A stretch of 64,000 nucleotides of DNA from Candidatus Gottesmanbacteria bacterium (lineage in GTDB: Bacteria > Patescibacteriota > Microgenomatia > UBA10105 > UBA927). Where the stretch lies: positions 44,714-108,713 of the forward strand of contig JAUXTO010000042.1 of NCBI GenBank assembly GCA_030679255.1. The letters are read 5' to 3'. Positions within the stretch are counted from its first letter, which is position 1, and every line of letters starts with the position of its first letter. This document shows, one piece after another, positions 4,358 to 46,532 of the stretch. The position numbers and the translations under genes were made by a program. The notes below the pieces were generated by a model, which did no database searches, was not told the DNA's origin, and saw only the letters and a list, made by a program, of their open reading frames with translations.

Positions 4358-4777
4358 ATGGCCAATCAAGTCACCTGGACATTGAGTGAAGGAGAGAATA
4401 AACAGTCCGTATTGATTCACATCGGAGATACGGTTCGTGTCCATTACAAACTGATTGAGCACGAAAAAGTAGCCGGCAAAACCAAGCGGGAAGTCAAAGA
4501 AGAAACCCGTGAACGGACCCAGGTCTTTGAAGGCATTTTGATCTCCATCCGCGGTAGTGGCGTCAACTGTATGTTTACGGTGCGTCATATGGGGACGGGC
4601 GCGGTAGGCATTGAACGTATTTTTCCGCTTATGTCCCCGTGGATAAGGAAAATGGAAGTGAAAAAGCACGGCGATGTCCGGCGTGCCAAACTTTATTATT
4701 TGCGCGGACGCCAAGGTAAGTCCGCTACCCGCATCGATGAGACAACGGTTCACATTCGACCCACCGGCGCCAAATAA
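4358..4777 (+). CDS. rplS: 50S ribosomal protein L19
   Basis: 139 aa; [12 protein letters not shown]...[16 protein letters not shown]...RRAKLYYLR matches bL19. Confidence 0.9.
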
Positions 4778-6804: not shown

Positions 6805-6904
6805 CTCCTCTTATATTATTTTCATCTGTAAGAAGGATAATGTCAATATAACAATATTTGTTTTGGGAACCATTGATGAGAAAGTAACACATTTACTGAT
6901 ATTT

Positions 6905-6913
6905 TGCTATAAT
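6905..6913 (+). promoter_or_regulatory. extended -10 (TGcTATAAT) promoter for tRNA-Lys
   Basis: tgctataat 11 nt upstream of tRNA 5' end. Confidence 0.4.
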
Positions 6914-6923
6914 AATCGCCTAG

Positions 6924-6998
6924 GGGTCGGTAGCTCAACGGTAGAGCAGTAGCCTTTTAAGCTATTGGTTCTGAGTTCGAATCTCAGCCGACTCACCA
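6924..6998 (+). tRNA. tRNA-Lys (anticodon UUU)
   Basis: Manual fold: acceptor GGGTCGG/CCGACTC (one G-U), D-arm GCTC-AACGGTA-GAGC, anticodon stem GTAGC/GCTAT loop CTTTTAA, T-arm CTGAGTTCGAATCTCAG, encoded CCA. Confidence 0.85.
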
Positions 6999-8515
6999 AC
7001 TTTGGCAGAGGGGGTACTATACTCCCTAGTCATCGCATATCCACGCCCTAATTCTGGTGTTCGAAATTTTATTCCTTCATAGACAAGTCCATTAGGGAAC
7101 ATCGAACACCCGATAGCCAGTTTGCCCTCAAGAGAGGCATCAATCCATACCCGTTTCATGTGAGAGAAGTAGTATTTGATAAAATTGACGCTGGTATCGA
7201 CATCAAGACGATCTATCTTTTTTTCACTAACAATACCCCGCTTCACTGCTAGCTGGGTTTCAAGATCATCTTTCATGGCGAGATATTCTTTGTCTGTATA
7301 TACACCTTTGGCGTTCTTGAGTCTCACTGTCCTCAACAATTCTTCAAGCTCTGCAATATCCCGGTGAACCTGATCCTCTGTATGGATGAGAAGGTTATTT
7401 TGAGCCTGCCACTTCTCGAGCACCATCTCTCCGAACCACTGCATATAGCCTTCGTCAAAAGTGATTCCATCAACAAGCTTGAGAAATGCTTCCTCTATAC
7501 CGTTCTCGCCGTCCTTACCATAGGAAATCACCTTATGTACGCCTCTTGTTGGACAGGCATAATACCCATATTTTTTGTATTTTCCCTTACTCCATGCGGA
7601 GGAGAGTTTTTTTCCACACTCACACCGGAGAATCCCCCTCAATGGGAAGTCCTCCCGTTGTTTCGCATATCGTTCTAGTTTTGATGGTCGCTTCCCTGTA
7701 AGTATCTCCCGGACACGGTAGAAGGTATCCAGGTCGATCATCGCCTCTTGCTGTCCGGTGGCTTCCCCATACTTCTGTGATACGAGAATACCTGCATAAA
7801 ACTTGTTAGAAAATACCCTGCTTGCTGATTGACGGAGAAACTTCTTGCACCGGCTGTCGTGTGTCAAGGTAAGCCCTAGTTTATTTATCTCTCTGGCTAC
7901 CTGAATCATGGAGAGTTTTTCCTGATCGACCCTATGCCACATAGTCTGAATGACTGGAAACCATGTCGGGTCTTTAACTGCAATGCTTTTTCCGTTCACT
8001 TTTTGCATTAGATATCCGATAGGAGGCTTTGAAGTTATATGTCCTTCGGTAAATCTTCTTTTAAGAGAGTTGGATACGTTCTGTGCCCTTTCCTCATTTT
8101 GATATTGATTGAATGATGCAAGGATCGTTTCGATCATTTTCTCTGCTGGTCTGTCGCCGGATGGTTCTGTAGTGGATATGAGACTGACGCCATGCTTTGC
8201 CATGAGTTCACGGATCACCAGGTAATCGAGTGTATTCCTATTAAGCCGTGAGAAGGCATAGACAATGATTGCGGATATATCGTTTTTGGGGTCTTTGACA
8301 AACGTGAGCATCTCCTGAAGTTGAGCCCTATCGGTCGTGGAAGCGCTAACTCCTTCTTCTCTGAATGTTTTGGCTACGATAAACCCCAATTGATCTGCCT
8401 TCTTTTGACACAGATCCTGCTGACTATCCAAAGAATAGCCATCAATTTGCTTATCACTGCTCACGCGGACATAAGTAACACAGTTTTTCATGCGAGTAGA
8501 TTTTGGGCAGCACAT
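6962..8515 (-). CDS. large serine recombinase (integrase); C-terminal tail overlaps tRNA-Lys 3' end; true start may be 8491 (MKNCVTYVRV)
   Basis: 517 aa; resolvase catalytic motif YVRVSSDKQ, recombinase domain, C-terminal CxxC...C zinc ribbon (CECGKK...YYAC). Confidence 0.85.
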   Translation of the reverse strand: MCCPKSTRMKNCVTYVRVSSDKQIDGYSLDSQQDLCQKKADQLGFIVAKTFREEGVSASTTDRAQLQEMLTFVKDPKNDISAIIVYAFSRLNRNTLDYLVIRELMAKHGVSLISTTEPSGDRPAEKMIETILASFNQYQNEERAQNVSNSLKRRFTEGHITSKPPIGYLMQKVNGKSIAVKDPTWFPVIQTMWHRVDQEKLSMIQVAREINKLGLTLTHDSRCKKFLRQSASRVFSNKFYAGILVSQKYGEATGQQEAMIDLDTFYRVREILTGKRPSKLERYAKQREDFPLRGILRCECGKKLSSAWSKGKYKKYGYYACPTRGVHKVISYGKDGENGIEEAFLKLVDGITFDEGYMQWFGEMVLEKWQAQNNLLIHTEDQVHRDIAELEELLRTVRLKNAKGVYTDKEYLAMKDDLETQLAVKRGIVSEKKIDRLDVDTSVNFIKYYFSHMKRVWIDASLEGKLAIGCSMFPNGLVYEGIKFRTPELGRGYAMTREYSTPSAKVGESAEIRTQNQ

Positions 8516-8660
8516 TTATTGTTGCGCCCCTTTAGTTTATTTTGCAATAGGTCAAGAGCAACATCGGCCAGCCGGGAGAATTTTTGGATCATCTCGGCTA
8601 CTTCTTGATCGGTCATATCTTTGATCTTATCTCCAAGTAGTTGTCTGGTGCGTTCAGTGG

Positions 8661-9023
8661 TCATGGTGTTTGTCTCAAAATAGTCCGAAACGTCCGGACA
8701 CTGTCCAATAGTGATCGTGGCGGGACACTTGCCTTGTTGCTAATAAACGCATTGACTTCTTCTTGTGCTATGTCTCCCGGGGAGAATTCCAGAGTTACCC
8801 TGCCGGTCATGTCCCGTTTCTGGGATATGAGCTTGAGTATTCCGAGCCCCGTTAGGTATAAAAGATAGGTAGCGAGATCCTGATCGCTTGATTTATAGGT
8901 GTCCATGTGTTCTCCTTTTGGCTGCCGGTGTAAAGAATGGCCACAATTTGAGTAATAATCCTTCTTCTCGAACGGTAAACCACTGGTGATAGATGGATTC
9001 ATACTCACGACTATTACGATCAA
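8661..9023 (-). CDS. hypothetical protein (element-encoded)
   Basis: 120-aa ORF in recombinase-primase operon; likely start at internal Met (MDTYK). Confidence 0.3.
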   Translation of the reverse strand: MIVIVVSMNPSITSGLPFEKKDYYSNCGHSLHRQPKGEHMDTYKSSDQDLATYLLYLTGLGILKLISQKRDMTGRVTLEFSPGDIAQEEVNAFISNKASVPPRSLLDSVRTFRTILRQTP

Positions 9024-9270
9024 GAAGCTGTAAGCGTGTTCGTAGCTCTACCTCATGTTTTTTTATGCTCTTGTGTGGATCATCCGGAGCAATCTCACTC
9101 AATTCCTGTAAACTGGCAGATCGAACCCGTTGTCTATGAAGGAGTTCCTTATCTATCTGCTGTAAATTGGTCTTGTCCAAGAAGGCGGGCTTTTCTGCTA
9201 TCCGTTCACGAAGTCTTGTAGCCATGGCTGATAATTTTTCATCTGGTAGTGCGTAGAGTTGTAGTTTCAT
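8893..9270 (-). CDS. hypothetical protein (element-encoded)
   Basis: 125-aa ORF, 4-nt overlap with primase stop. Confidence 0.35.
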   Translation of the reverse strand: MKLQLYALPDEKLSAMATRLRERIAEKPAFLDKTNLQQIDKELLHRQRVRSASLQELSEIAPDDPHKSIKKHEVELRTRLQLLDRNSREYESIYHQWFTVREEGLLLKLWPFFTPAAKRRTHGHL

Positions 9271-10859
9271 TCAATTACCTCCAAATTGTCTAAGAATTCG
9301 TCTTGTTCACTTTTCTTGTCATTGGTGGAGGTTGGTGGAACTTCGTAGGCACGAGGTGGAGCTTCGAGGCCTGTTTTACTAAACTCTCTATGCGAGAAGT
9401 CTCTAGAGGTAGTTTGTGGAAATGACCCTTGAACCTCCACCGTAGCCTCAAAATTGGTTGACGAACCTCCACCTGACAACGAAATTCCCCGGTAGAAATT
9501 GCCCTTTTTGCCCTCTAAGCGCTTGTAGCGTTCTCCTATCTTTTGGTAGAAGGTTTTGCTACCTAGCGATTCCTTTTTATCGTACCCCTGCTCAATGGCC
9601 CAAGCCTGGTATGCTTTCCACAAATCTGATGCTTTTGTTTCCACGGTCGGGAGCAATTCACACTTCTCGTTGATAAAGTCCGCCAACGTATCGCTTTCCT
9701 GTTGGTATTCGCTTGTCGCCTCAAGCACACACTGTGGAATAGGCTGCAAGCCCTCTTGTTGCCACAACAAGCAGCCTTGAATGAGCCAGTTGAGTATTCC
9801 CGATTGTTCTGTCTGGAGCTTTTGGGTCAGCTTGAGGTCTTGTTGGGCCGTGGTAAAAATACGGGTAAAGGGGATCAGTCGAACCCGGCGCCAGAATCCA
9901 AGAGAATCATCGCTCACAAGCGGTTTATGATTGACGAATAACCATATTTTGCAATGGGGCTCAAAGGTAAACCCCTCCGCATACAGGTAACGTGCCGTGA
10001 TTGCATCACCACCGGATATGTTTTTGAGCCTAGATTCATCTATCTTGCGTCCACCTAGCACCTCAGACGATACCACCATGCGCTTGAATTCCAGGGATGC
10101 TAGGTCGTTTGATGTGGTCGTTTGATTCCGTTGAAAGGTATGAAATGGTGCGTCGTGACTGTAATCTCCAAGTACATTCCGAAGTGTTGAAAAGAGGACG
10201 CTTTTACCGTTGCTACCGATCCCATAACAAAAGAACACGACCTGTTCCGATGTATCGCCCGTGAGGGTGTACCCAAGTGCCTTGTGAACAAAGCGAATAA
10301 GCTCCTCATTGCCCTCAAAGATTTCACCGATAAACTGTTCCCACCGTGGGCAGGTAGCAGCCGGATCATAAGATATATGCGTCGACATGGTGATCCGGTC
10401 TTCTTGTTTTCCTTCTCGGAACGATCCGTCATTGAGGTCAATAATCCCGTTTTCACAAGCGAGGAGATTTTTGTGCTGATCCCATTCCTGCCCGTTGTCT
10501 GCAATTGGAAGAAGATTTTTTGCGATTCCTGTTGACGCATCAAGACGCATCTTAGATTCACTTTGTATGGCCCATTTAGCTACTGCGGTACGCTTTGATA
10601 AATCTTCAATATCTTTTGCATCGCTATAGAGTTGTTTGACTGCCAGCACCGCAAATCGGTTAATCTCTCCGGAATCATCGGGACACCATCGGGGGGATTT
10701 CCAAAGCAGCCATCGCTTGCGGCGGTGATCGAAGCGCACCCTATCCCCAAACAGTTCAACGATCTTTTCAGCGTTAGACGTATCGGTGCATCGGATAGGT
10801 TCACTACTTGGGTTGATTAGCTTCATTGTTTTATCGATAATTTGGTCTGCTGTTTTCAT
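9267..10859 (-). CDS. D5/P4-family primase-helicase C-terminal (NTPase) protein
   Basis: 530 aa; Walker A FFCYGIGSNGKSVL typical of phage/plasmid primase P4-family C-terminal domain. Confidence 0.75.
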   Translation of the reverse strand: MKTADQIIDKTMKLINPSSEPIRCTDTSNAEKIVELFGDRVRFDHRRKRWLLWKSPRWCPDDSGEINRFAVLAVKQLYSDAKDIEDLSKRTAVAKWAIQSESKMRLDASTGIAKNLLPIADNGQEWDQHKNLLACENGIIDLNDGSFREGKQEDRITMSTHISYDPAATCPRWEQFIGEIFEGNEELIRFVHKALGYTLTGDTSEQVVFFCYGIGSNGKSVLFSTLRNVLGDYSHDAPFHTFQRNQTTTSNDLASLEFKRMVVSSEVLGGRKIDESRLKNISGGDAITARYLYAEGFTFEPHCKIWLFVNHKPLVSDDSLGFWRRVRLIPFTRIFTTAQQDLKLTQKLQTEQSGILNWLIQGCLLWQQEGLQPIPQCVLEATSEYQQESDTLADFINEKCELLPTVETKASDLWKAYQAWAIEQGYDKKESLGSKTFYQKIGERYKRLEGKKGNFYRGISLSGGGSSTNFEATVEVQGSFPQTTSRDFSHREFSKTGLEAPPRAYEVPPTSTNDKKSEQDEFLDNLEVIE

Positions 10860-11398
10860 ATCAATCTCCTCACCGCATCCGGAAAACTATACTTGTCGTG
10901 ATTCATCAAGTAGTCGATGGCTGACCCACCGTGAGCAGCACATCCAAAGCAGTGGTAGGAGTTGTCTTTGGTATAGAAGTAAAAAGACGCGGTTCGTTCT
11001 TCATGGAAGGGGCAGAGTGCCTTGAAGTTATGCCCGGAACGGATAAGGCGGCCGTCATAGAGTTCGTGGGTGGGATATTCCTTTGCCCTGTCTATCTGGT
11101 CTTGAGAGAGAAAATTAGATGGCTTTGATTCCTGTGGCAAACACCGAAGGTACAAATCGCACCAATAGGCCAACTCTGCTTTTAACTGATCCCGTTTCCG
11201 TTGTTCTGCAAACTGGATATACCACGGTGCGCGGTTGGTTCCCATCCTGTGGCCAAGATACTCTCGTTGGGCAGGTGTGAAACGGCGGGAGTTGTGTACC
11301 ATGGTGGTGTACTCCCAGACCTTCTCCTTGAAGATTGGCTTAATGTCGTCTTTGCCGAATATGTCTATAGTTTGGTTCATTGTCATAATACTCTCCAT
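10856..11398 (-). CDS. CHC2 zinc-finger primase N-terminal domain protein
   Basis: 180 aa; CPFHEERTASF...YHCFGCAAHG zinc-binding motif of DnaG-type primases; ATGA overlap with D5 ORF. Confidence 0.7.
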   Translation of the reverse strand: MESIMTMNQTIDIFGKDDIKPIFKEKVWEYTTMVHNSRRFTPAQREYLGHRMGTNRAPWYIQFAEQRKRDQLKAELAYWCDLYLRCLPQESKPSNFLSQDQIDRAKEYPTHELYDGRLIRSGHNFKALCPFHEERTASFYFYTKDNSYHCFGCAAHGGSAIDYLMNHDKYSFPDAVRRLI

Positions 11399-11573
11399 TT
11401 CTGCCCACTAAAAAACCCCCGTACCATTGGACTAATAAAATCCAATCGTACAGAGGTTGGTCAGACGGTTACCTTATACCGAAGGGTAGCTCAGGATGTC
11501 AGCTTTCTCAGCTCGACTATCGTCCGTTACTGTTCTTTCAACTGACGCCCAAAGACTTTGTGCTATGTGAACG

Positions 11574-11876
11574 TCAGATTTTCTTTTTATCTTTACCCAT
11601 CATTTTAATTTTATCGTCGTGTATAGCAGTAAGTGACGGTGAACGCATAAACTTCATAATGTTTTCACCAAGAACAACATTCTTTCGTCCAACTTTAGAC
11701 GAAACTAGTTTTCCCGATTTCATAAGTTTATAAATAGAACGAACATCGACGTTCATCGTTTCAGCTACTTCGTCCGGTCCGTATACTTTAAGTGGCACTA
11801 TTGGTTTAATATCCATAATCGCAGTATACACCCCATTATCTCTAAATGCAATAGGGCAAAAAGCAATTGAATACAT
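11574..11876 (-). CDS. excisionase/AlpA-like HTH DNA-binding protein (start may be internal MDIKPIV at 11816)
   Basis: KVYGPDEVAETMNVDVRSIYKLMKSGKL helix-turn-helix resembling phage Xis/AlpA family. Confidence 0.45.
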   Translation of the reverse strand: MYSIAFCPIAFRDNGVYTAIMDIKPIVPLKVYGPDEVAETMNVDVRSIYKLMKSGKLVSSKVGRKNVVLGENIMKFMRSPSLTAIHDDKIKMMGKDKKKI

Positions 11877-12032
11877 CTACCTCTTGACACTGATCTCTAC
11901 AGGGTATACGCTTGAGTAGCTTAGAAAGAACCGGTGAGAACATATTGTATAATTACTACGCCATCAGGCGAGATCTTTCTAAGCAATCGATTCTCACCAA
12001 CCTGATGGCAATTTTTGTGGAAAGGAGACAAC

Positions 12033-12152
12033 ATGAGAAATATACTAGCTGACCGGGCCTTCCTGCTCCGGACGATTCAGGCGCTCATCTGTGGCGCGAT
12101 GGCGTTTCTCGCATCTGGGAGTTTAGGGTTGAAAATCGGGAGGATTCTATGA
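12033..12152 (+). CDS. 39-aa hydrophobic peptide (possible)
   Basis: ATG preceded by aaaggagacaac; MRNILADRAFLLRTIQALICGAMAFLASGSLGLKIGRIL; ATGA overlap with next ORF. Confidence 0.2.
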   Translation: MRNILADRAFLLRTIQALICGAMAFLASGSLGLKIGRIL

Positions 12153-12367
12153 GCAGACGCACCGTATTACTCGACAGGATATACAAGCGATTTGCCACAC
12201 CGGAAGACCTACGGATTGTGGATGAGCTATATGCCAAAGGTTCCAAAGGTGTTGCTGTCCGCAAGATGCTTCAAGACATCCTTGAGAGACTGGATACCAA
12301 AGAATGGAATGCGGAGAAAGCACGGAGAATAGATGATTTTGATATCCCACGACTTCTTGCAGCGTGA
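12149..12367 (+). CDS. hypothetical protein (element-encoded)
   Basis: 72-aa ORF with RBS gggagg. Confidence 0.35.
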   Translation: MSRRTVLLDRIYKRFATPEDLRIVDELYAKGSKGVAVRKMLQDILERLDTKEWNAEKARRIDDFDIPRLLAA

Positions 12368-12426
12368 GGCTAGGGGTAGAGGTTCTGCTATGTAGAGGCG
12401 CTTCGGGAAACCGGGGCGCTTTTAGT

Positions 12427-12996
12427 TCAATTAGCAACAACAAGCGCTGTTACAACAGTTGGATGTTTATAAAATTTCCCCTCAAACGCATATACCCCTG
12501 CATCCCATTGCCCTTCGGCAAACAACACTTCTGCGTGTTTAGGGCTATTGATCCATGCGTGTACAATTGTTTCTGAATTAGTAGGACCTAGCGCAAGATT
12601 TTCCTTCATCCTGTCATACCGTAGCCGCAGCCTGGTAATAATGTTTTTCATTGTCGCACCGCTTCGCGTGGCTTCGTGGCTAAACTCGCTATTTTCAAGC
12701 ATATCTTTTGCCCGGAGATAGGCAACGTAAGATAGATCGTGGCTTTCAACAAAAGGAGGTAAATTATTCTCTTGCCTGGCTTGGTTTATGAGAGCAAACA
12801 TTTGTTTTACATCAACGGACGTCGTTGATGAAGGCGGTTCCGGGAGTACCGCAGAAGAAAAAACGTATTGAATGTCACCTTTAACCTCATATACAAGAAC
12901 GCCAAGCGCGCCAAAAGCCAGAAGAATTGCTGCAAGCGTAAGGAGTATCGGGAGTTTTAGGCTTATAGGACGCTTCATACATCTATTATACTCCAA
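12427..12996 (-). CDS. CAP/SCP (YkwD-like) domain protein with N-terminal signal anchor
   Basis: 189 aa; N-terminal TM; WINSPKHAEVLF...GVYAFEG resembles CAP-domain SPxHxxN(I/L)L motif. Confidence 0.55.
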   Translation of the reverse strand: MEYNRCMKRPISLKLPILLTLAAILLAFGALGVLVYEVKGDIQYVFSSAVLPEPPSSTTSVDVKQMFALINQARQENNLPPFVESHDLSYVAYLRAKDMLENSEFSHEATRSGATMKNIITRLRLRYDRMKENLALGPTNSETIVHAWINSPKHAEVLFAEGQWDAGVYAFEGKFYKHPTVVTALVVAN

Positions 12997-13224
12997 ATCG
13001 AATGACTAGCTGTTTACGTAGCATCGTGGTGTTGTGGTGGATGTTTTCTATGACTTATCGTAAAAGGGTAGAATATACCTCTTTTGAATATAAAGCCGTT
13101 TTACCCCTACAGATGAGGCTGGATAAACGGTAACTTACCCTCTTACAGGCGATCCACTATGGAAAGATTAGATAGGGGATTCTTCTTATTGTAAACATAG
13201 GATTATTCTTTATACCATCTTCTC

Positions 13225-13419
13225 ATGGCAAATTGGGATGATATTTTACAGGAATTAAAGAGCATTAAAGACCTCTTGCAACACAGTACGATCACGGTTG
13301 TTTCCAACTCGATAAGCCCTTCACAATCACCAAGTGTCTCGGTTTCTCCAAGCGTCAGTCCGTCAGTGAGCGTCAGTCCAAGCTACTCTCCCTCAATTTC
13401 TCCGTCAGTCTCCTCGTAA
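13225..13419 (+). CDS. small protein with (V)SPS repeat tail (possible; may be repeat artefact)
   Basis: 64 aa; C-terminal SPSQSPSVSVSPSVSPSVSVSPSYSPSISPSVSS encoded by GTCAGTCC-type DNA repeats. Confidence 0.2.
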   Translation: MANWDDILQELKSIKDLLQHSTITVVSNSISPSQSPSVSVSPSVSPSVSVSPSYSPSISPSVSS

Positions 13420-13544
13420 TACAAAAGAGTGTCTTCGTCTCACAATCTACCCTCATATATGAATTGTACGACTCAATAAGGAGCGTAATCTCGTGCCTGT
13501 GAGGTCGTAGGATGCCCTAGGAGGCACGAAGTGGGGTCAGGTGG

Positions 13545-16500
13545 CTATAGTTCCTTCTTAATTTTGGGGTACTTTATAGAAGTGATAGTTTTTAGCTTTG
13601 GCACCTTATATTTCTTGAATTTGGCAAGTCGCTTGGGTTTCTTCAGAGTAAACTTTTTCAGTGCAATCATTTTGACCTTAGGAATCTTCTTGACGGTCAA
13701 CCTTGCTTTGGAGGTAGAAAGATCAGAAAGCACTTCTTTGACTTGGGATACATCAATAACACCGGCGGTCACCGCAGCACTGATCTTGTTCTTTTGTGTC
13801 GTGAGCGCTGACTTGTATTTTGAGAGCGCTTGTTTATCTACCTCATAATTTCCCACCATCTTTGGCTTTTGAGGGATATAAGAAACGTCTACAGAAGTCA
13901 CTGTGCCTGAAGGGGAAACATAGAAAAGCTTTGTCCCACTGCTTGCGGGTTGTCCTGTGAGGCCTACGGTTTGTCTCGCCTTGAGATCTTCTTTGGTTTC
14001 TGCTTGTTGATCCATAAAGTCACTATATGTTTTGGTTCCACCACGGACCAACTCGGATTGATTGGCTGATAGGGGCCGGGCATTACTATCAAAGTACGTC
14101 TGTGCTTGTGGAGTAGAGTATTGTCCGAACAACATGGACTTTACATAGTTGGGGAATGTTTGTTCTACTGGGAAACGGATATTTCCAGTCGGCGTTGTTG
14201 ATTCCCCCTTATTGTAGGATTGTAGACCTTCAACGGTTTTTCTTATCTGTACGCCACCAGGAAAAAACGCTGGTGCTACTTTGATGAGATTGCGCTTGCC
14301 TTCTTCTCTCGTTTGTTCTTCGCCAAAAAGCATTTGTCCTGTTGCTTGTCCCGCCTGCAACGATGGGGTAAGTCTAGGGTTTATTGGTAATAGGTCTAAC
14401 TTCATCCCGAATGCGTCCTTGAGTATTTTTGCCATAACGAGAGTTGCTCCGACGTAGCGCACCAATCCCGCAATATCCCTTTGTGCAACCTTAGTGAGCA
14501 GGAATTCTCCTTGCTTAATGTTGAACGACTGGAACTGAAGAAGTGTTTTGTTGATATCGCTTGATAGCGCAAGGGGTGTGTCGATACTGCCGAACACAAA
14601 TTGTGTTTTCCGAACGATACCCTTTGCGTACTCTATCGCCTGTTGTTCACTCATGTTTTGTGAAAGTGCCTTGGCTTTCGCGCCGTAATAAGCAGCACCA
14701 CGATTGATCTTTTCCGCTTTATCGAACAGGTAGAACAGGCCTTCGTCGAGCTTTGTGAGGATGTTTTTGTAGACGCCGATATTCCTATCCTGAATGAATG
14801 AATCTTTCAGCACTCCTACGCGTTCAAGTTCGTTTGATCCCCAGTTTCGGGCAAGCTTCAAGTAGCCTGTGGCTGTCCAACGTTCCCCAAGCTCTGCGTA
14901 AGTGTTGGCGCCCTGGGAAAGATTTCGAAGCGCCGAAGATACATTCAATCCCAGTGTCCCGCGATAGACTGTCTGCCTGATCGATTGAGATAGAGCCGTT
15001 ACTGGTCGGGGACCGAAGCGGTACCCGATAGGAGTGCTCTTGATGAAATTATCAATGAGGGTATCTATCTCCGTAGGACGAAGATTGATTCTGTCCGTGA
15101 GTTTTTGTAGATATTTATATTGTGACAGTTCGAGGCTTGGTGATTTTGCCTTTAATGCTTCCAGGGCAGGGTCAAGATTATATTTCCTCACTGCCCGTTT
15201 GGTATAAGCATCGAGAGCCGCCCATGTATCTTTGAGATAGTCAATCCTGTCGCTTTTACGCATGAGCAGGAACGGATCGTAGACCCCACCCGCGACCTTC
15301 TGGTCGATAAGTTTAGCGAGGGCAGGGTCAAACTCTCCCTCAACCGCGCCCTTGGTCCAGATGTGGGTGATGTAATTACTTATCTGTTTAGATGGTGGCA
15401 GTTTTAACTTCGTTGCCCAGTCCGCTAAATACCCTCTGATCTCCATTGCAACCCTGCCTTCAACGGGATTGAGTCCTACATTTTCCCCGTCCAAAGCTCT
15501 GAATATCCGTTCGTTGCTCTCAGGCGGAACCCGCTTCTGCCAGTCTGATATTCTCTTTATTTCATCCGGTAATTGCGTGAGATACGATTCGTACTGTGAA
15601 CGAAGATACTTCGCTTCATCTCCCAGCCCGATCTTTTGAAGTACCTGTTCGGGCGTTCTCAAATAATCAACAATGTTTACCTTGTTTTGTACGTTGGTGA
15701 ACGTGGGGTCAATGACGTTTTGTACACGTCCTATTGCTTGCGGGTCGTTGGCGGTAAATGCTTTTTTTACATATCTCTTGGCCTCCTCGACATTTGCGGC
15801 AACCATCTTGTCATATGAGGAATGATCGAGCGGGCTTATCCCGTCATCAAGGATTCGTTGTGCTTCTTTGGCGTCAATAAACCGTATCTGACGGGCGGTA
15901 AATCCACGACTTCCTAACTCTTGGGGATAGTTCAGAAGATTTGACAACCGTTCATTCGGAGTTTTAGGTACTTTAGAAAGTGCTTCATCAATGGTAAATA
16001 TTTTGTCCTCTATGGTACGAATAATACTCCCGACTTGGGTATCATTCTTCATAGTCTGAATGATTGCATAATCTTTTTTGTAGTCTCCTGAACCACCGAC
16101 TAAATTCACTAGTTCCTTGTTGAGTGTTGCCCGTAACGCTTGTAAGTCGTCTTTTGCTCCCGTCTTTATGAGCTTATCCGCAAACTCGTTGTACACGATT
16201 GACGCTTCTTCTGGTGTTTTGGTGAGGGAAAGACGACCACTAAGTGCGTTTTGAATCTCTGGTGTTTTGGTAAACCCCATGATCGCCAGTCGATCTGTCT
16301 CCTGGAGTTGTTTTCCTGCTGCTATTTCTTTTGGGGTAAATGTTGTTTGTCCTCTGTTTGCTTTTGTTAAGAACGATTGCTCCTCCGGTGAGTAAGAGCC
16401 TCCCGTGAGCAGATTCAAGCTAAACTTGGCTATATCCCCAGTCTTTACATCAAAGCCTTCTGGTTTAATAGGATTTCCTACACCCCATTTTAATGTGGGA

Positions 16501-16823
16501 AGCTTATTCAGTTGTGCGTCGATCTGTGGTTGATAGTCCGTCATCACTGCACGGGAGGGGATGATGTTACTCGAATATATTCCTTGTTTCTGAAGGCTTT
16601 GCTGAGAAATTGTATTTTGCTTTAATTGATTGGAAAAATTAGTTACTGCATCATTGACCCTGTTCACAAAGGGTTGTACCTGGGGCTGCAGTTGTTTCTG
16701 TACCCACGACGCTGGTGTTGGATTCTGCTGGATAAACGACTGAGCCTGACCGAACAGTTTACTTGCGGTATTTTGAATTTTCGTTGCTACTTGTTGACTT
16801 AGAGTGTCCCATAGATTAGCCAT
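13545..16823 (-). CDS. very large Q-rich hypothetical protein (virion structural-like); start set at MANLWDTLSQ, ORF track extends to 16991
   Basis: About 1090 aa; 8-nt overlap with stop of upstream gene; Q/N-rich N-terminus, K-rich C-terminus; no family recognised by eye. Confidence 0.5.
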   Translation of the reverse strand: MANLWDTLSQQVATKIQNTASKLFGQAQSFIQQNPTPASWVQKQLQPQVQPFVNRVNDAVTNFSNQLKQNTISQQSLQKQGIYSSNIIPSRAVMTDYQPQIDAQLNKLPTLKWGVGNPIKPEGFDVKTGDIAKFSLNLLTGGSYSPEEQSFLTKANRGQTTFTPKEIAAGKQLQETDRLAIMGFTKTPEIQNALSGRLSLTKTPEEASIVYNEFADKLIKTGAKDDLQALRATLNKELVNLVGGSGDYKKDYAIIQTMKNDTQVGSIIRTIEDKIFTIDEALSKVPKTPNERLSNLLNYPQELGSRGFTARQIRFIDAKEAQRILDDGISPLDHSSYDKMVAANVEEAKRYVKKAFTANDPQAIGRVQNVIDPTFTNVQNKVNIVDYLRTPEQVLQKIGLGDEAKYLRSQYESYLTQLPDEIKRISDWQKRVPPESNERIFRALDGENVGLNPVEGRVAMEIRGYLADWATKLKLPPSKQISNYITHIWTKGAVEGEFDPALAKLIDQKVAGGVYDPFLLMRKSDRIDYLKDTWAALDAYTKRAVRKYNLDPALEALKAKSPSLELSQYKYLQKLTDRINLRPTEIDTLIDNFIKSTPIGYRFGPRPVTALSQSIRQTVYRGTLGLNVSSALRNLSQGANTYAELGERWTATGYLKLARNWGSNELERVGVLKDSFIQDRNIGVYKNILTKLDEGLFYLFDKAEKINRGAAYYGAKAKALSQNMSEQQAIEYAKGIVRKTQFVFGSIDTPLALSSDINKTLLQFQSFNIKQGEFLLTKVAQRDIAGLVRYVGATLVMAKILKDAFGMKLDLLPINPRLTPSLQAGQATGQMLFGEEQTREEGKRNLIKVAPAFFPGGVQIRKTVEGLQSYNKGESTTPTGNIRFPVEQTFPNYVKSMLFGQYSTPQAQTYFDSNARPLSANQSELVRGGTKTYSDFMDQQAETKEDLKARQTVGLTGQPASSGTKLFYVSPSGTVTSVDVSYIPQKPKMVGNYEVDKQALSKYKSALTTQKNKISAAVTAGVIDVSQVKEVLSDLSTSKARLTVKKIPKVKMIALKKFTLKKPKRLAKFKKYKVPKLKTITSIKYPKIKKEL

Positions 16824-18078
16824 AGATCGGTTGACCGTTTTGATCGTATCCTTTGAATACTTTTCCGGATATTTGTCCTGTGTAATTTGGTGTGTTTTGT
16901 CCGTTTGATGAATTGATTGATAACGGTGATGCTGGAGTGGTTGTCGTTTGATTGAAGTAGTTATTGAGTGCTGATTGTGAGCCTTGACCACTCATTTGCA
17001 TCTGTCGGGCATAGGTATCTAACGCTGTTGCAGCCTGGCTTCGTTGAAGTTCTAGGGTTTGCTCAAATTGAATTTTCTGAGAGTTTATTTGAAACACTTC
17101 ATTCCGGAGAGTCTGTAAAGCAGAGAGAGAAGCTTGGGCTTTTGCAGATGCTATTTGTGACCTGCTTTGTGAAATAGAAAGAAGTTTGTTTTGAAAGTCA
17201 CTCTTTGCTTGAGAGAAAGCAGAATCCGTATCGTATTTTAGCTTCGTCTTAGCGGTAGAGTAGCCACGATCAAGATCATATTTTTGAGTGTCAATCTGTG
17301 CCATAGTGTCGCTATAGGATCGCTGTGTTAGTCCCATCTGACGTTGCTGTTCAACAGATGAAAGTTCACTGGCTGCTTCACCTGCGGACGTACTACCACC
17401 AAAGCGTTGCTGATATCCACGACGTAATTCGTCATACAGTCTTCGTGCTGCTGTAAGCGCATCTTCTTTTCGATACCCTGCGCTTGTTGCGTTGCGATCA
17501 AGAGTAGAAAGACCAGAGGTATTTTGATCATTGAGCATCTGAGTGTTCACATCGAATTGCCCTTGGATTGATTTTTGTACATCGGGATATTGAGCATTCA
17601 GAGTATTTTCAGCTTCTGTGAGATATTGAAACGAGGGGTTATACAGTGCATCAATCTGGGATTGAATATCGGGCTGGCCTTGGCCTTGTTGTGCCATGAG
17701 TTCTCGATAGCGGGATTCTTGTGAGGGGTTACGATCCATCTTAGATAATTGTTGAAGTTCTGAATCACTTGGGCCTGTGGGGGTTGTGTTCGCTCTTGTT
17801 GTTACTCCATTAACCTGACCCGTTCCTGTGTTATTGTTTCCACCGGTAACCATTCCTGAGGGCTTGGGTTGTATGTAAGGGGTGTCGTATGTTCCGGTAA
17901 CTGGTTTTCCTGCGATCGTGTTAGCTAGACCTGTGACGGGTCCAGCGCCTACGACATTAGGAGTCACCATGCTTCCAATATTTGCCACGGTTTGACCCAG
18001 TGCCTGACGTGCCTGCCCAGAACCAAATTGATTGACTGCAAGATCGTACCATCCACCTAAATTTTGAATTGCTCCCAT
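16816..18078 (-). CDS. Q/N/S/T-rich hypothetical protein (start at MGAIQNLGG with aggaga RBS)
   Basis: About 420 aa low-complexity protein; RBS AGGAGAA 5 nt upstream of ATG at 18078. Confidence 0.45.
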   Translation of the reverse strand: MGAIQNLGGWYDLAVNQFGSGQARQALGQTVANIGSMVTPNVVGAGPVTGLANTIAGKPVTGTYDTPYIQPKPSGMVTGGNNNTGTGQVNGVTTRANTTPTGPSDSELQQLSKMDRNPSQESRYRELMAQQGQGQPDIQSQIDALYNPSFQYLTEAENTLNAQYPDVQKSIQGQFDVNTQMLNDQNTSGLSTLDRNATSAGYRKEDALTAARRLYDELRRGYQQRFGGSTSAGEAASELSSVEQQRQMGLTQRSYSDTMAQIDTQKYDLDRGYSTAKTKLKYDTDSAFSQAKSDFQNKLLSISQSRSQIASAKAQASLSALQTLRNEVFQINSQKIQFEQTLELQRSQAATALDTYARQMQMSGQGSQSALNNYFNQTTTTPASPLSINSSNGQNTPNYTGQISGKVFKGYDQNGQPIYG

Positions 18079-18286
18079 ATGTTCTCCTGTGCCTAATCCT
18101 ATCCAACCGATATTTATGTTTACAATGACCAAAAATTAAGTCCTGGAATAACGGGAGGAAGTAAAATGAAAATTTGGCCTCTCCATTAAGATACACGCCT
18201 CCCGTTGTCTCAAATCTTAATCCTAAGGGGCGTTTTGGTCGTCACCTCACGCCCCATGATTATTAGTTGTTTTATAAAAGAACCAA

Positions 18287-18502
18287 TTACACACCTTTAG
18301 AATGAATCACTGAGCTTGCTTTTCCTTTGCCTGCTATGCCTGCTGTTTTCTGTAACTTGGAAGTCAATGCTCCTGTTTTGTTTGCATTTGAGACATACTT
18401 TGCATGTGCCAGCGACAGGTCACCCGCATGAACGTACTTAGCTTGTTTTGCTCCTACGTTTGCCGCTACGTCTTTACTCCATCCTTGTTTATCGATTGCC
18501 AT
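18287..18502 (-). CDS. small K/A-rich hypothetical protein
   Basis: 71-aa ORF in TerL-downstream block. Confidence 0.3.
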   Translation of the reverse strand: MAIDKQGWSKDVAANVGAKQAKYVHAGDLSLAHAKYVSNANKTGALTSKLQKTAGIAGKGKASSVIHSKGV

Positions 18503-18520
18503 ATAGTATTTTCACCTCCC

Positions 18521-18724
18521 TTATGTAAATCTTCTTTTACCTACGAAATCAATCAACATTTGAATGATCTCTTTTTTACTTAACTGCTCACCATTAGCGA
18601 TGATGAAAGTAAAAATCTCATCCTCTATGGTCCTTTCACCAATCTGTGCCTGTCCATGATTTGCCGTATTAGCCCACTGTGTGGCTACGGAATCCATGTG
18701 TTCTAAAACGTTATATGTTGTCAT
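18521..18724 (-). CDS. small hypothetical protein
   Basis: 67-aa ORF. Confidence 0.3.
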   Translation of the reverse strand: MTTYNVLEHMDSVATQWANTANHGQAQIGERTIEDEIFTFIIANGEQLSKKEIIQMLIDFVGKRRFT

Positions 18725-18748
18725 ATAGTTTTTCCTTTCTAAATGTTT

Positions 18749-18931
18749 TTATATTTTTGCTTTTAACACTCTCCATTCCATCTCGTCTCTTGTAAAAAGT
18801 TTCTTGTCGATATTTACCCGCATGGGTGGATCTCTCGGTTCACCTTCTGTTTTTCTAATGGCATCGTACTTCTTGATCCGTTCCATAATCTCAACATCAT
18901 TTGCCGTTGGTTCTGTTGTTTGTTTTGTCAT
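18749..18931 (-). CDS. small hypothetical protein
   Basis: 60-aa ORF. Confidence 0.25.
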   Translation of the reverse strand: MTKQTTEPTANDVEIMERIKKYDAIRKTEGEPRDPPMRVNIDKKLFTRDEMEWRVLKAKI

Positions 18932-18993
18932 ATCTGTTTATTCACCTCCTCTAAATTGTGAGATAAAGCTATTCATGTTTGCACGAGCAAAAA

Positions 18994-20298
18994 TCATCCG
19001 ATTCTCCATTTCTTTTTTAGTTCTTTTGCTTTTTGTAGCGATTGGTATGAGTTTGTCTTTGGTGTCTGATCAAGATTCCAGCAGTAATATTCAAACGCTC
19101 TCATGGCGTGGGAGTATTGGTTGTGAATAGGTATCTCGTTGGATTGGTTTACCATGGTCTCTCGTTTTTGAGGGTAACAATAGTTCACAAGACAGTCTCG
19201 AAACCGAGAACAATTTGGATTTGAGGATGATACATATAGCCGTGACATAAAACGATGCGCATTCCGTATCTGCGTTGGAATATCAGGGATAAACGAAGTC
19301 TTTACATAGTGTCCGAGTCTTGCAAGTTCCTCTATTGGTGATTTGCCGGTTGTTAAGTCTCTTGCAGTTCCCGCAATATCACCTGCTTCAAAGGAAGGAA
19401 TTATATATGGCTTTGCACTGACAGCTTGGACAAAGTGGTCAATATTGGCATTTGAATCTTCGATATAGTCAATCAAGCGGATTTCTGAACCTCTTTGCTG
19501 AAGAAATAGAATAACCGTTGGATCATTCACGCCAAAGTCCCACGCTAAATGAAGAGGAAGCAAAGGATCATAGTCAAAAGGAATGTATCGTGTCTCCATG
19601 TCCCAGTCTTCATACACAACACCGTGAGGCTTTTCGTATTCTGCAAGAATTTCCTGTCGATAATATCCCATGCCCATTTGTTTATATTCAGTTATCAATG
19701 CTTGTAATTCCTGGGGATCAAGTTCAGGATTATCTGAAGAAGTAAAGTGAAAACACTTGAACAGACCGCTTTGTTCTAGTGAGTAGAGTTGTCTAAATCC
19801 TTTGGGAGTTCCTGCCATGATAGCGGGAGCTTTATTGGTTATAAGGTTTGGACGAATAACTGTTGGCCATATATTTGATTCCCAATCATCAATCTCATCA
19901 CCCGCGAACGCTCCCCAATTTGAAATACCACGAAGTGCCTCCGCATTTTCAACACCAAGTAGTTGTACTTTCCCACCATTAGGAAGTGATATAGAGAGTT
20001 CCGCCTCATTCTTTTTATAGGGAAGTTTTATCCCTGTGAAATGGTCAAGCATCCGTTGTACATGGTCTGACCACACGATGTTTTTACTCTGTACTCTGTT
20101 TGGTGAAACATACGGGCATGTGAGGTTCGTTTTAAGTGCCATTTCAAAAAGCCATGAGATAAGAAGGCTTGTTTTTCTCCATTTACGGCCTGCACGAAGT
20201 TGAATAAACCGAAAACCATCATCAAGAGCCTTCAATACTTCCTTTTGTCCTGAGTGTGGTTTTGTCGGATAGAATGTATTTACTTTTATTTCGCTCAT
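18994..20298 (-). CDS. terL: terminase large subunit
   Basis: 434 aa; FIQLRAGRKWRKTSLL Walker-A-like motif and overall layout of phage TerL (ATPase + nuclease). Confidence 0.75.
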   Translation of the reverse strand: MSEIKVNTFYPTKPHSGQKEVLKALDDGFRFIQLRAGRKWRKTSLLISWLFEMALKTNLTCPYVSPNRVQSKNIVWSDHVQRMLDHFTGIKLPYKKNEAELSISLPNGGKVQLLGVENAEALRGISNWGAFAGDEIDDWESNIWPTVIRPNLITNKAPAIMAGTPKGFRQLYSLEQSGLFKCFHFTSSDNPELDPQELQALITEYKQMGMGYYRQEILAEYEKPHGVVYEDWDMETRYIPFDYDPLLPLHLAWDFGVNDPTVILFLQQRGSEIRLIDYIEDSNANIDHFVQAVSAKPYIIPSFEAGDIAGTARDLTTGKSPIEELARLGHYVKTSFIPDIPTQIRNAHRFMSRLYVSSSNPNCSRFRDCLVNYCYPQKRETMVNQSNEIPIHNQYSHAMRAFEYYCWNLDQTPKTNSYQSLQKAKELKKKWRIG

Positions 20299-20299
20299 A

Positions 20300-20740
20300 T
20301 TATTCTCCCCTAGTTAGAACAACCTCAATGTTTGTTTGTTGCATCTGTGCTGGTATATCGGTTTCTATACCGAGGAGTTTTCCGAGTTTGTCGTGATAAT
20401 CTTTTCGTGTCTTATGATCCGCATACATCTCACCGGAGAATTGATCTCGTTTAGTAGCTTCTACCCCCTGACGAAGCTGATCAAAGTATTTCTCATGATC
20501 TAGACCATAGGCTTGCATGATCTCTTGTTTGTTAACTCGTGCTAACCATCGTGATCCCAAGACCCGTGAGGAGTGATCGTCAACAGAAGGGTGCAATTCC
20601 TTGTATGCTTTTGAGGCATTTAGTCCGCACTTCACCCACGTAAGATAAAAAAGCATCAGATCTAAGTTTCCATCAAACGCTTTCTCGAGATCCTTAATGT
20701 TAGGTGTTATTTTATTTTTCATTGGTATCTTTCTTCTCAA
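20300..20740 (-). CDS. terS: terminase small subunit-like HTH protein
   Basis: 146 aa immediately upstream of terL; CGLNASKAYKELHP resembles TerS N-terminal HTH. Confidence 0.5.
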   Translation of the reverse strand: MRRKIPMKNKITPNIKDLEKAFDGNLDLMLFYLTWVKCGLNASKAYKELHPSVDDHSSRVLGSRWLARVNKQEIMQAYGLDHEKYFDQLRQGVEATKRDQFSGEMYADHKTRKDYHDKLGKLLGIETDIPAQMQQTNIEVVLTRGE

Positions 20741-20927
20741 AGTATCGAAAGCGGTGCTGTACTATTTTCTTTGGATCGATCTCAGGATAATCAGAGACCA
20801 TGTCTCTCCCCCCAAGTCGAAGGAAAAGATAACACCGTAAACAAAGCGTATCGACGATATCGTGCATAGTTACACGAAAAAAATACTCTCCAACCACTTG
20901 TGTACAATAGAAACATACCCGCTTCAC
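20712..20927 (-). CDS. hypothetical protein
   Basis: 71-aa ORF overlapping neighbours in operon. Confidence 0.2.
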   Translation of the reverse strand: MKRVCFYCTQVVGEYFFRVTMHDIVDTLCLRCYLFLRLGGRDMVSDYPEIDPKKIVQHRFRYFEKKDTNEK

Positions 20928-21223
20928 TTTGCCCCTTCCTGATTTAGTTTTGTCACAATTTCGTCTGCGGTGTTCAGTGTCAACTCGGTATTACTCTCGG
21001 ATATCATGGCCGCTCCGTCATTCACCGTTTGCATAGCCTCATTGTTTTTTTTCATCTGCTCTAGCAAGCTCATGTTTCGCAGCGCTAGTTCGTTTGAGAG
21101 CTTGAGGACACAGTCAATGTGCCACGACCCCTGTTGAAGACCAATCTTTGTGGTGAGTTGTGTTTCTCCCGTGCCACAATAAGGGCAATTGCCGTCGCTT
21201 ATATGCTCCATTGAATCGTTCAT
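20924..21223 (-). CDS. zinc-ribbon hypothetical protein
   Basis: 99 aa; CPYCGTGE ... C pattern. Confidence 0.35.
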   Translation of the reverse strand: MNDSMEHISDGNCPYCGTGETQLTTKIGLQQGSWHIDCVLKLSNELALRNMSLLEQMKKNNEAMQTVNDGAAMISESNTELTLNTADEIVTKLNQEGAK

Positions 21224-33853: not shown

Positions 33854-34108
33854 ATGGCGGAAACTATCGATGAACAGGTTTCGGTAAATTTATTATTTAA
33901 CCATATTAAGCGGTCGGCTGCTCCGACGTCTCTTTACTGGCGGGGGCGGCGGTATACGATCACGAGCGTCGGACTGCATCACACCACGCGGGAAGGGCGG
34001 ACGCTCCTCCATATTTTTTCCGTAACGGACGGAACAACGGCTTTTAAGCTGGAGCTTAATTCAGAAACGCTTGGGTGGAGGCTATTGGAGATAGACGCTC
34101 AAGCATAA
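33854..34108 (+). CDS. hypothetical protein upstream of Y-family polymerase
   Basis: 84-aa ORF co-oriented with downstream polymerase. Confidence 0.4.
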   Translation: MAETIDEQVSVNLLFNHIKRSAAPTSLYWRGRRYTITSVGLHHTTREGRTLLHIFSVTDGTTAFKLELNSETLGWRLLEIDAQA

Positions 34109-34244
34109 GCACCAAATTCCAATATTCAAGCATCAAATAAATCACAAGCATCAAATGAAAATAAACAAGAAGTAATTCGTGTTGTTTATATATTAGTACT
34201 TGTGTTCGTTTGTTTGGTGCTTGGCACTTGATGCTTGGAATTTC
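34105..34244. repeat. dispersed imperfect-palindromic intergenic repeat, copy A
   Basis: words CCAAATTCCAA / CAAGCATCAA / TTGGTGCTTGGCACTTGATGCTTGGAATTT shared with copies at 39650 and 47818; ends at start codon. Confidence 0.5.
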
Positions 34245-35594
34245 ATGAATACATTTAGTCTTTTCCCTCCTACTATCATGCACGTCGATCTCAATTCGTG
34301 TTTTGCCAGTGTGGAGCAGCAGGCAAACCCGTTACTTCGGGGAAAACCAATTGTCGTAGCCGCCTACACGACCGACAGAGGGTGTATTTTAGCAGCGTCT
34401 GTAGAAGCCAAACGCCTGGGCATCAAAACCGGCATGCGGGTGGGGGAAGGGAAAGCATTGTACCCGCGTCTCGTCGTCCTTGCACCGGATCCGGAAAAGT
34501 ACCGGTGGGTCAATAGGAAGCTCTTCGCGCTTCTTTCCTCCTACACGCCGCATATTTCGGTCGAATCCATTGATGAGATGGTGATGGATTTACGCGACAC
34601 TCCAGCGTTAGAGCGTCACATCAAAGGATTGACAGGGTCTCGCCCTGTCAATAAACAGGGCGAGACCCCTACAAGCCAACACATTGACGCTATGATTTGT
34701 ATTGGTAAAAATATCAAGAAGCGCATCAAGGATGAGATTGGCGAGTGGCTCACGGTCTCGATCGGCATTGCGCCCAATCGATATCTGGCCAAAGTCGCCT
34801 CAGGGCTCCATAAGCCCAATGGACTGGATATCATCACCCAAGAAAACATTGAGGAGATCTTTACCGGACTTCGGCTTGAGGATTTATGCGGTATCAAGGA
34901 AGGCAACGCAGGGAGACTTCGGATGGCCGGCATCAATACGCCGGTTGAGTTTACCCGCGCTTCGGCAGCAGCACTGGTTGCCGCACTTCACAGTAAAACA
35001 GGTTTGAGTTGGTGGCAGCGGCTCCATGGGTATGAAGATGGGGTCATGTATAAAAATTTTAATCAATCAGAAGATATTCAGAAAACTTTCGGGCAATCAT
35101 TTGCTCTGGGTACCCCGCGCGTGCCGAGCGATCCACAGACAGCAAAAATTATGGCTCAGCTCATCGTCAAGATGGGCCGGCGGCTTCGCGGTGCGGGCTT
35201 TGTGGCTCAGGCGTTGAGCGTGTCATTTTTATTTTCCGATTATTCTCATTGGGTGAAGAATATACGGACAACGGAGCCTCTGTTTGCCGATAGTGATTTT
35301 TTAGCGCATGCCGGTAAACTTTTAGTGATGGCGCCACATAAACCCGTGAGAATTCTTGCCGTGACCAGCTTTCATTTGAGCGCGCGCGGATCGGGGCAAA
35401 TAGGACTATGGAATACCGATGAGACGAAATGGAAAATTACTGATGCTCTGGATGCCATTGCCAATCGGTGGGGTGAGTTTGCGGTTACGCCGGGCCGCAT
35501 GTTGGGGATGGAACCCGCTTCGACTCGCGAGTCAGGGCGAGTTCAGCGAGGCGAGCAGAAGGTGCAGGACAGGATAGCGTTCGGGAAAGTATAA
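34245..35594 (+). CDS. Y-family DNA polymerase (DinB/UmuC-like); start trimmed to MNTFSL
   Basis: MHVDLNSCFASVEQ...GKPIVVA...catalytic palm motifs of Y-family polymerases. Confidence 0.8.
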   Translation: MNTFSLFPPTIMHVDLNSCFASVEQQANPLLRGKPIVVAAYTTDRGCILAASVEAKRLGIKTGMRVGEGKALYPRLVVLAPDPEKYRWVNRKLFALLSSYTPHISVESIDEMVMDLRDTPALERHIKGLTGSRPVNKQGETPTSQHIDAMICIGKNIKKRIKDEIGEWLTVSIGIAPNRYLAKVASGLHKPNGLDIITQENIEEIFTGLRLEDLCGIKEGNAGRLRMAGINTPVEFTRASAAALVAALHSKTGLSWWQRLHGYEDGVMYKNFNQSEDIQKTFGQSFALGTPRVPSDPQTAKIMAQLIVKMGRRLRGAGFVAQALSVSFLFSDYSHWVKNIRTTEPLFADSDFLAHAGKLLVMAPHKPVRILAVTSFHLSARGSGQIGLWNTDETKWKITDALDAIANRWGEFAVTPGRMLGMEPASTRESGRVQRGEQKVQDRIAFGKV

Positions 35595-39653: not shown

Positions 39654-39702
39654 TTCGTTTAGAATTTGTTTGGAATTTGGTACTTGTTGCTTGGAATTTA
39701 TG
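39650..39702. repeat. dispersed intergenic repeat, copy B (right-arm only)
   Basis: GTAATTCGTTTAGAATTTGTTTGGAATTTGGTACTTGTTGCTTGGAATTT ending at holA ATG. Confidence 0.45.
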
Positions 39703-44113: not shown

Positions 44114-44158
44114 GTGTTGCCAGTTGATAAATCTTCAAATATTCTCCATACTAAATAT

Positions 44159-46522: not shown

Positions 46523-46532
46523 GACTTATTGT

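Follow-up and report, generated by a model that had tools for sequence, protein, structure and literature searches.

Short tandem repeats of seven to nine nucleotides recur in and between several metabolic genes of the 64-kb stretch of DNA analysed here (the window), and the locus raises the question of what makes them and whether the tetranucleotide AGTC/GACT, which several of them carry, has any part in it. A first-pass annotation had listed such arrays at four or five places, all built on one core, and had suggested that the coding ones are slipped-strand contingency sites and that the core is a recognition site. We called arrays over the window with Tandem Repeats Finder (TRF) and an exact-run script, and four of the five listed arrays were recovered, the exception being that at 13334-13415. 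In ppsA, the CAGTCGT repeats placed at 45125-45150 were called by TRF as (CAGTCGT)x4.4 at 45125-45155 with 95% matches, and the period-9 repeat placed at 45508-45543 as (AATACTACC)x3.2 at 45515-45543, also with 95% matches. The repeat and complementary array described around the ppsA stop codon are present too: an array of unit AAAGTCTAT, given by TRF as (AGTCTATAA)x5.7 with 88% matches, starts at the end of ppsA (46438-46487), and (TTTCGAC)x3.4 lies between ppsA and eno at 46496-46519 with 100% matches. The AGTCAAA repeats reported inside acs form a perfect array (x4.6 at 52213-52244, 100% matches). In the exact-run scan, only four arrays with a period of at least 6 were perfect anywhere in the 64 kb, and all four carry AGTC or GACT; the chance expectation of one such array in the window is far below 1. 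With head-to-tail units of 5-11 nt and lengths beyond chance, the window arrays are long simple-sequence repeats.

The segment 13334-13415 (forward strand) is the Ser/Pro/Val-rich tail of an orphan 64-aa ORF (13225-13419). The claim that tandem repeats encode this "SPS tail" fails, as TRF makes no call there, even down to a score of 30, and autocorrelation does not exceed 0.40 (at lags of 12 and 18). CGTCAGT does occur four times within the segment, at irregular spacings of 8, 10 and 32 nt. The ORF has no match in Pfam or among the PHROGs, and a search of 5.8 billion proteins returned no homologue. A prophage-like island of about 6900-21000, adjoining a tRNA (6924-6995), encloses the segment and encodes a large serine recombinase (6962-8515), a D5-like primase-helicase (9267-10859), an 1148-aa protein without Pfam domains (13545-16991) and the large subunit of a terminase (18994-20298), along with a DnaG-type zinc ribbon, an HTH_17 protein and a CAP-domain protein.

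TRF also called arrays that had been overlooked, namely (CTGATAG)x4.3 at 45161-45190, beside the CAGTCGT array in ppsA, and two sets of inverted arrays, one of heptamers in the eno-gpmI spacer (47824-47930) and one of 8-mers at 60011-60153. Since all of these lack AGTC, the "shared core" is partly a selection effect. Of the 13 arrays of period 7-9 in the window, twelve fall within 44000-61000, a 17-kb stretch that runs from the glycolytic/gluconeogenic operon through uvrA, which leaves a single one for the remaining 47 kb (P = 1e-6). On inspection, an apparent array in UvrB (55613-55647) has 73% matches and is ordinary coding sequence, and the resemblance of 11497-11521 to the right arm of the ppsA array (76% match) is a chance similarity and no array.

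Pfam identifies PEP synthase (ppsA) at 44159-46453, and in the window also enolase (true start 46533), iPGM, class-3 FBPase and, at 50704-52434, an AMP-forming acetyl-CoA synthetase. All relatives of the window PpsA come from Patescibacteria MAGs, the nearest with a phylum-level name being Candidatus Gottesmanbacteria (Microgenomates, in the candidate phyla radiation, CPR), and the window is accordingly Gottesmanbacteria-like. The Patescibacteria/Gottesmanbacteria MAG homologues of ppsA are 54-91% identical to it, and the nearest relative of all (P0001, locus L161) shares 94% protein identity; an exact-sequence look-up of the gene gave no match, and a metagenome scan no 100% match. By Pfam boundaries and TRF, 45116-45199 (forward strand) is interdomain linker 1, which joins the ATP-binding domain to the mobile His domain and is built of heptamers throughout: about four TCGTCAG units (the CAGTCGT array of TRF, 45125-45155), a 5-nt centre and a right arm of four units (CTGATAG/CAGAAAG/CTGACAG, 45161-45190). 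The DNA of this linker is an in-frame inverted pair of heptamer arrays, and its RNA folds at -29.7 kcal/mol (z -3.1). The same 4+4 architecture (4 x NNNTCAG, 5-nt centre, 4 x CTGANAG) is shared by the window and six related loci (L161-L166); in this long-linker family the hairpin has 19 consensus pairs with 96% of cells paired, but compensatory change is seen at only 2 of the 19. The third right-arm unit is CAGAAAG in every case, evidently because CTGAAAG at that position would introduce an in-frame TGA. In all, seven homologues carry the hairpin in frame at this structurally permissive position, as Rickettsia palindromic elements (RPEs) are carried.

Other lineages have filled the same linker with other heptamers: AAGTCMA in L002 and L082, GACTCAG in L003, AAAAGTC in L093, GCAAATG in L051 and GAAAACA in L095, with none in L001, the closest named MAG. 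The linker-1 arrays of L002 and L003 are direct-only and do not fold (direct-only arrays, that in acs included, have z from +0.6 to +2.1). Linker 2 connects the mobile domain with the PEP-binding domain and contains the (AATACTACC)x3.2 array (45515-45543, forward strand), which encodes NTTNTTNTT; the unit count of this array is three in the window and in L161 but four in L001, and different 7- or 9-nt arrays occupy the linker in other lineages. Among the homologues P0001-P0060, the long hairpin linker is present at 94% and at 70-77% identity and missing from those at 90-91%, and the linker type of L001 reappears in a 73% homologue. This patchiness with respect to overall identity suggests linker replacement or recombination between ppsA alleles.

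The acs array (52213-52244, forward strand) encodes SQKSKVKSQKS in a variable loop of the AMP-binding C-terminal domain of Acs, a position at which homologues differ by 0, +7 or over +20 residues; the coding arrays do sit in linkers and loops, in keeping with the linker-length idea of the first-pass annotation, and the length of these sites varies among homologues. The array forms no hairpin (z +2.1). Its length is equal in the window, L001, L002 and L161 (84-87% DNA identity), which differ by point substitutions only, the array of L002 having decayed to AAAGTTN.

Two heptamer arrays in coding DNA are each read in all three frames, AGTCAAA as AGT CAA AAG TCA AAA GTC AAA (SQKSKVK) and CAGTCGT as CAG TCG TCA GTC GTC AGT CGT (QSSVVSR). 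Since one 7-nt word is read in three frames, the periodicity must have been generated at the level of DNA, as had been supposed, and protein-level selection cannot have produced it. It is also a property of the lineage. In 138 non-redundant Microgenomates loci (2.06 Mb), TRF called 74 arrays of period 7, as against 1.8 in triplet-shuffled controls, an excess of about 40-fold, while other periods reached 1.5-3 times expectation. Forty-two of the 74 lie outside long ORFs. Of roughly 24 that are internal to ORFs, about 15 fall in linkers 1 and 2 of PpsA, and these linkers account for 0.7% of the DNA (P = 7e-18 for about 15 of 74). Units that are not multiples of three are thereby depleted from coding DNA and tolerated at permissive sites, as is typical of long simple-sequence repeats. 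In the window's own clade (157 kb) there are 51 arrays with periods of 7-9, or roughly one every 3 kb. L001 has an almost perfect 8-nt array, (GCTTAGTA)x5.8, at 4610-4655, and expansion in this clade therefore extends to units other than heptamers.

Between genes the arrays tend to take another form, in which an A-rich array is followed by a complementary T-rich one and the strand folds into a hairpin (z about -4; -3.9 to -5.5 for the array hairpins of the window, L002, L161 and L164). The spacer of ppsA and eno is the clearest case. Its 5' arm is the 9-nt array of AAAGTCTAT-type units (5.7 copies, 46438-46487, forward strand), which begins in the last codons of ppsA (stop 46451-46453), and its 3' arm is (TTTCGAC)x3.4, the complement of AAAGTCG, at 46496-46519 (forward strand), ending 14 nt before the eno start codon (46533). 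The hairpin as a whole (46437-46527) is long and periodically bulged, with a folding energy of -31 kcal/mol and z -3.9; orthologous hairpins have z -3.9 in L002, -4.25 in L161 and -5.5 in L164. The arm units are AAAGTC:GACTTT in the window, L002 and L164 and AAACTCA:TGAGTTT in L161, a compensatory change at the level of whole units. Unit numbers in the arms also differ (5/3.4 in the window against 3/5 in L002). The element is absent from L001, L082, L163, L165 and L166, in which the stop and start codons overlap or are 4-30 nt apart, and comparison of filled and empty sites reveals no obvious target duplication, the boundaries being blurred by the repeats themselves. An Rfam search of the whole window at gathering thresholds returned two tRNAs only and no known RNA family at the hairpins. 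Repeat tracts of this sort affect gene calling as well: the mechanical ORF for enolase starts inside an array (46488-46532) and that for iPGM likewise (47909-47946), where homology puts the starts at 46533 and about 47947.

On balance we think it probable that the arrays are heptanucleotide (less often 8- or 9-nt) simple-sequence repeats that slippage generates and that persist at tolerant sites. Replication slippage itself is something we infer from the three-frame reading of a single word and from differences in unit number between relatives, and to that extent the slipped-strand origin proposed earlier is supported. Coding arrays are almost confined to sites free in sequence and length, namely the two swivel linkers of PEP synthase and the variable loop of acetyl-CoA synthetase; selection trims them such that reading frames stay open, and they evolve mainly by point substitution with the occasional gain or loss of a unit. 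Selection on the fold may keep the hairpin arms complementary, or templated repair may do so, and the spacer hairpins might influence the operon transcript by affecting the stability of its 3' end, its processing or how accessible the start codon is. Several observations count against this account. It leaves the clustering of 12 of 13 arrays in 44-61 kb unexplained, and the perfection of the acs array in the window, where its orthologues are substituted, needs either recent homogenisation or chance. The constancy of short tracts, the excess of AGTC-bearing units and one dispersed hairpin family, all described below, weigh the same way.

A different possibility, which we regard as unlikely but the most serious of the rivals, is that the arrays belong to small mobile elements of palindromic structure, similar to MITEs and REPs or to RPEs, which inserted in spacers and at permissive in-frame sites in genes and whose tandem sub-structure is a property of the element. 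The window does contain one dispersed family, a palindromic element of about 130 nt with copies at 47817-47945, 34100-34245 (reverse) and 39590-39701 (reverse); both orientations are thus present, a 60-nt stretch is 92% identical between copies, and every copy stops 0-3 nt short of a start codon. The forward copy fills the eno-gpmI spacer and folds at -41 kcal/mol (z -4.0), with heptamer-like units YCAAGCA ... TTTGGWA and no AGTC core. The ppsA-eno hairpin, which some close relatives have and others lack, its boundaries being clean, also fits mobility, as does the in-frame 81-84-nt linker-1 hairpin, found in 70-94% homologues and missing from some at 90-91%, a patchy distribution resembling that of RPEs (PMC10969869). 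At least some elements, those of the three-copy family, have spread otherwise than by local slippage. Against a general explanation of this kind, however, only that family occurs in dispersed copies, as a MITE, REP or RPE would, and it was not found in any of 167 related loci; the AAAGTC/GACTTT hairpin and the ppsA-linker hairpin are each single-copy in the 64 kb. Terminal inverted repeats and target-site duplications were not identified, the direct-only arrays (acs, and linker 1 of L002 and L003) do not fold, and unit sequences vary from locus to locus.

Two other palindromic structures in the window deserve mention. Inverted 8-nt arrays at 60011-60153 (forward strand; called by TRF and by fold), GAATAAGN upstream and TTATTCTN downstream and again without an AGTC core, flank the start codon (60052) of a transglutaminase-like gene, and the hairpin at 60005-60150 has -30.4 kcal/mol and z -4.0. 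The T-rich arm encodes a hydrophobic N-terminal segment of that gene's product, FNYSIILLFVYSLISA. The second is a near-perfect 48-nt palindrome (39539-39586), immediately upstream of copy three of the dispersed family, with a TCAGCCAAAGGCTGA / TCAGCCTTTGGCTGA core, its 24-nt arms 88% complementary and without a loop.

If anything newer is hidden here, it would be in the pairing of complementary arrays. An unlikely proposal is that the Gottesmanbacteria have distinct self-complementary hairpins of 7-nt period (some four units and four complementary ones on either side of a short centre) that spread or regenerate in spacers and in-frame enzyme linkers, have arms that co-evolve unit by unit and act as RNA structures that set the relative expression of genes in the glycolytic operon. 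We know of no RPE that is internally periodic, as the 7-nt-periodic hairpins here are; if the proposal were true, these array hairpins would be the CPR counterpart of RPEs.

It is improbable, in our judgement, that the arrays are repeated binding sites for proteins, whether tandem heptad operators for ribbon-helix-helix repressors in DNA or sites for S1-, Csp- or CsrA-like proteins in 5' untranslated RNA. Known heptad operators are made of direct and inverted heptads at 7-nt spacing, a geometry that the arrays fit, and GACTTT repeats immediately precede the start codon of eno in the window, L002, L164 and L167. The ppsA unit CTGATAG is moreover close to a rotation of TAACTGA (LSAISYQ as against LSVISYQ, PMC4679880, in the encoded peptides), and for the TAACTGA repeats of Beggiatoaceae 5'-UTR binding by S1-, Csp- or CsrA-like proteins has been proposed. 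However, the spacers are so short that any insert would abut a start codon, so position is uninformative, and units differ at orthologous sites (AAAGTC in the window, AAACTCA in L161, none in L001 or L082). Identical units also occur inside coding linkers of unrelated enzymes, and exact TAACTGA tandems are absent from the 167 related loci.

The suggestion that the coding arrays are contingency loci, in which gain or loss of a 7-nt unit would frameshift ppsA or acs and so switch it on or off, we consider very improbable. Units of 7 nt are not divisible by three, and a change of one unit would shift the frame; the window arrays are also perfect or nearly so. Copy number among relatives nevertheless goes against it. 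The acs array is constant in length in four genomes, the linker-1 arrays of L002 and L082 are orthologous five-unit tracts of equal length, and L082 and L083, 99.0% identical and gap-free over 3.2 kb, have identical arrays. Changes in unit number appear only at greater divergence (three or four units in linker 2, and the arms of the ppsA-eno spacer). Every ppsA and acs orthologue examined is in frame, with no out-of-frame allele among them, the tracts are short (3-5 units), and PEP synthase and acetyl-CoA synthetase belong to central metabolism and not to surface or restriction-modification functions. Judged from these alignments, array length seems to behave as in an ordinary microsatellite rather than a hypermutable switch, and tracts of 3-5 units that are constant over 13-17% DNA divergence look stabler than a very slippage-prone tract should be.

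Least credible of the graded alternatives is the recognition site, in which a methyltransferase or nickase that recognises or nicks at AGTC/GACT would seed the arrays. AGTC-bearing units are indeed over-represented, in 13 of the 51 clade arrays where 3.8% is expected (P = 4e-8), or in about 7 of 40 when orthologous arrays are collapsed (P = 7e-4). The bias among arrays is real, and one recurrent family, AAA(A)GTC-N / N-GACTTT(T), is its source. This family is a variant of the AAAANTC units that are common among Microgenomates; in the whole sample AAAAGTC is the most frequent canonical heptamer, and AAAGTCA tandems recur in distant loci. The CAGTCGT array of ppsA belongs to a separate family, NNNTCAG/CTGANNN, in which the core conserved between orthologues is TCAG/CTGA and AGTC is formed only where units meet, in the window and L162. 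What looked like a common core thus brings together two families that are unrelated. Outside arrays AGTC is not enriched but mildly depleted, with 306 occurrences against 351 expected from a Markov model (0.87) and 492 from a zero-order one, and this ratio is unremarkable among the 256 tetranucleotides. Three quarters of the clade arrays have no AGTC at all, and the roughly two dozen window proteins that were scanned, a part of all ORFs, include no candidate nuclease or methyltransferase. Of contexts such as GANTC (CcrM/HinfI-type) and GAGTC (nickase-type), only the L003 unit GACTCAG contains any, and GAGTC is not enriched. The residual over-representation of AGTC (P = 7e-4) has no explanation in plain slippage. 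Programmed ribosomal frameshifting was rejected, as the units are not slippery heptamers of the form X XXY YYZ and all ORFs are in frame throughout.

Heptanucleotides are the most abundant class of long simple-sequence repeats in many bacteria, and polymerase slippage has been invoked for them (Mrazek 2007, summarised in PMC4679880 and PMC4692102). The arrays described here resemble these repeats (LSSR5-11) in being head-to-tail 7-nt arrays beyond chance length with heptamers dominant, in being mostly intergenic, in varying in length and sequence between related genomes and in sometimes forming inverted pairs. They differ in their host, a small CPR genome where LSSR5-11 are mainly found in large-genome free-living Burkholderia, Xanthomonas, cyanobacteria and actinobacteria, and in their density, about one per 3 kb around a glycolytic operon, with several in frame in essential enzymes. 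The cyanobacterial STRR heptamers (CCCCAGT, TTGGTCA, CAACAGT) and the Nostoc and Xanthomonas GGGGAYT / GGGAATC heptamers are likewise typical of their lineages and mostly intergenic, and those of Xanthomonas and Nostoc differ in length and sequence even among close relatives and are sometimes arranged as inverted pairs (PMC4692102), as ours are; they are, however, G-rich and quadruplex-forming (PMC4692102), whereas the units here differ from them, are A/T-rich and form hairpins. A rotation of the STRR2 heptamer TTGGTCA, (ATTGGTC)x3.4, occurs in a Woesebacteria locus (L041, 5373-5396). What the arrays share with RPEs is palindromic sequence, about 80-150 nt long, that occurs both in spacers and, in frame, within metabolic genes (PMC10969869), in-gene positions compatible with the protein fold and, for one window family, three copies; by contrast with MITEs, REPs and RPEs, neither a consensus common to several copies nor terminal inverted repeats or target duplications were identified for the arrays themselves.

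A literature search on simple-sequence repeats in CPR bacteria found no description, and the present arrays extend heptanucleotide repeats, known from large-genome bacteria, to the candidate phyla radiation, where such density is unexpected in genomes that are small and streamlined. They are a clean natural example of DNA-level repeats writing and rewriting protein linkers, related PEP synthases having linkers made from unrelated 7- and 9-nt arrays. The hairpins that inverted arrays form between glycolytic genes are candidates for a role in regulation or RNA stability, in organisms about whose gene regulation almost nothing is known. For annotation the lesson is practical, as repeat tracts can falsely extend ORFs, enolase and gpmI here appearing to start in arrays, and may be mistaken for contingency loci.

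The TAACTGA repeats of Beggiatoaceae, cyanobacteria and some Bacteroidetes abut start codons, with in-ORF copies at the protein periphery (MacGregor 2015, PMC4679880). Our arrays are like them in having a 7-nt unit, in being short (TAACTGA arrays have 2-6 copies) and in often abutting start codons; unlike them, they employ many units instead of one and usually come as complementary inverted pairs. Exact TAACTGA tandems were not found in the window or in the 167 related loci. The nearest approach is CTGATAG (45161-45190, and 3988-4068 of L164), one base off CTGATAA, which is a rotation of TAACTGA. Its complementary arm, (CTATCAG)3, encodes LSAISYQ, nearly identical to the LSVISYQ reported for TAACTGA arrays (PMC4679880), and three heptamers amount to one 7-residue heptad with hydrophobic a and d positions.
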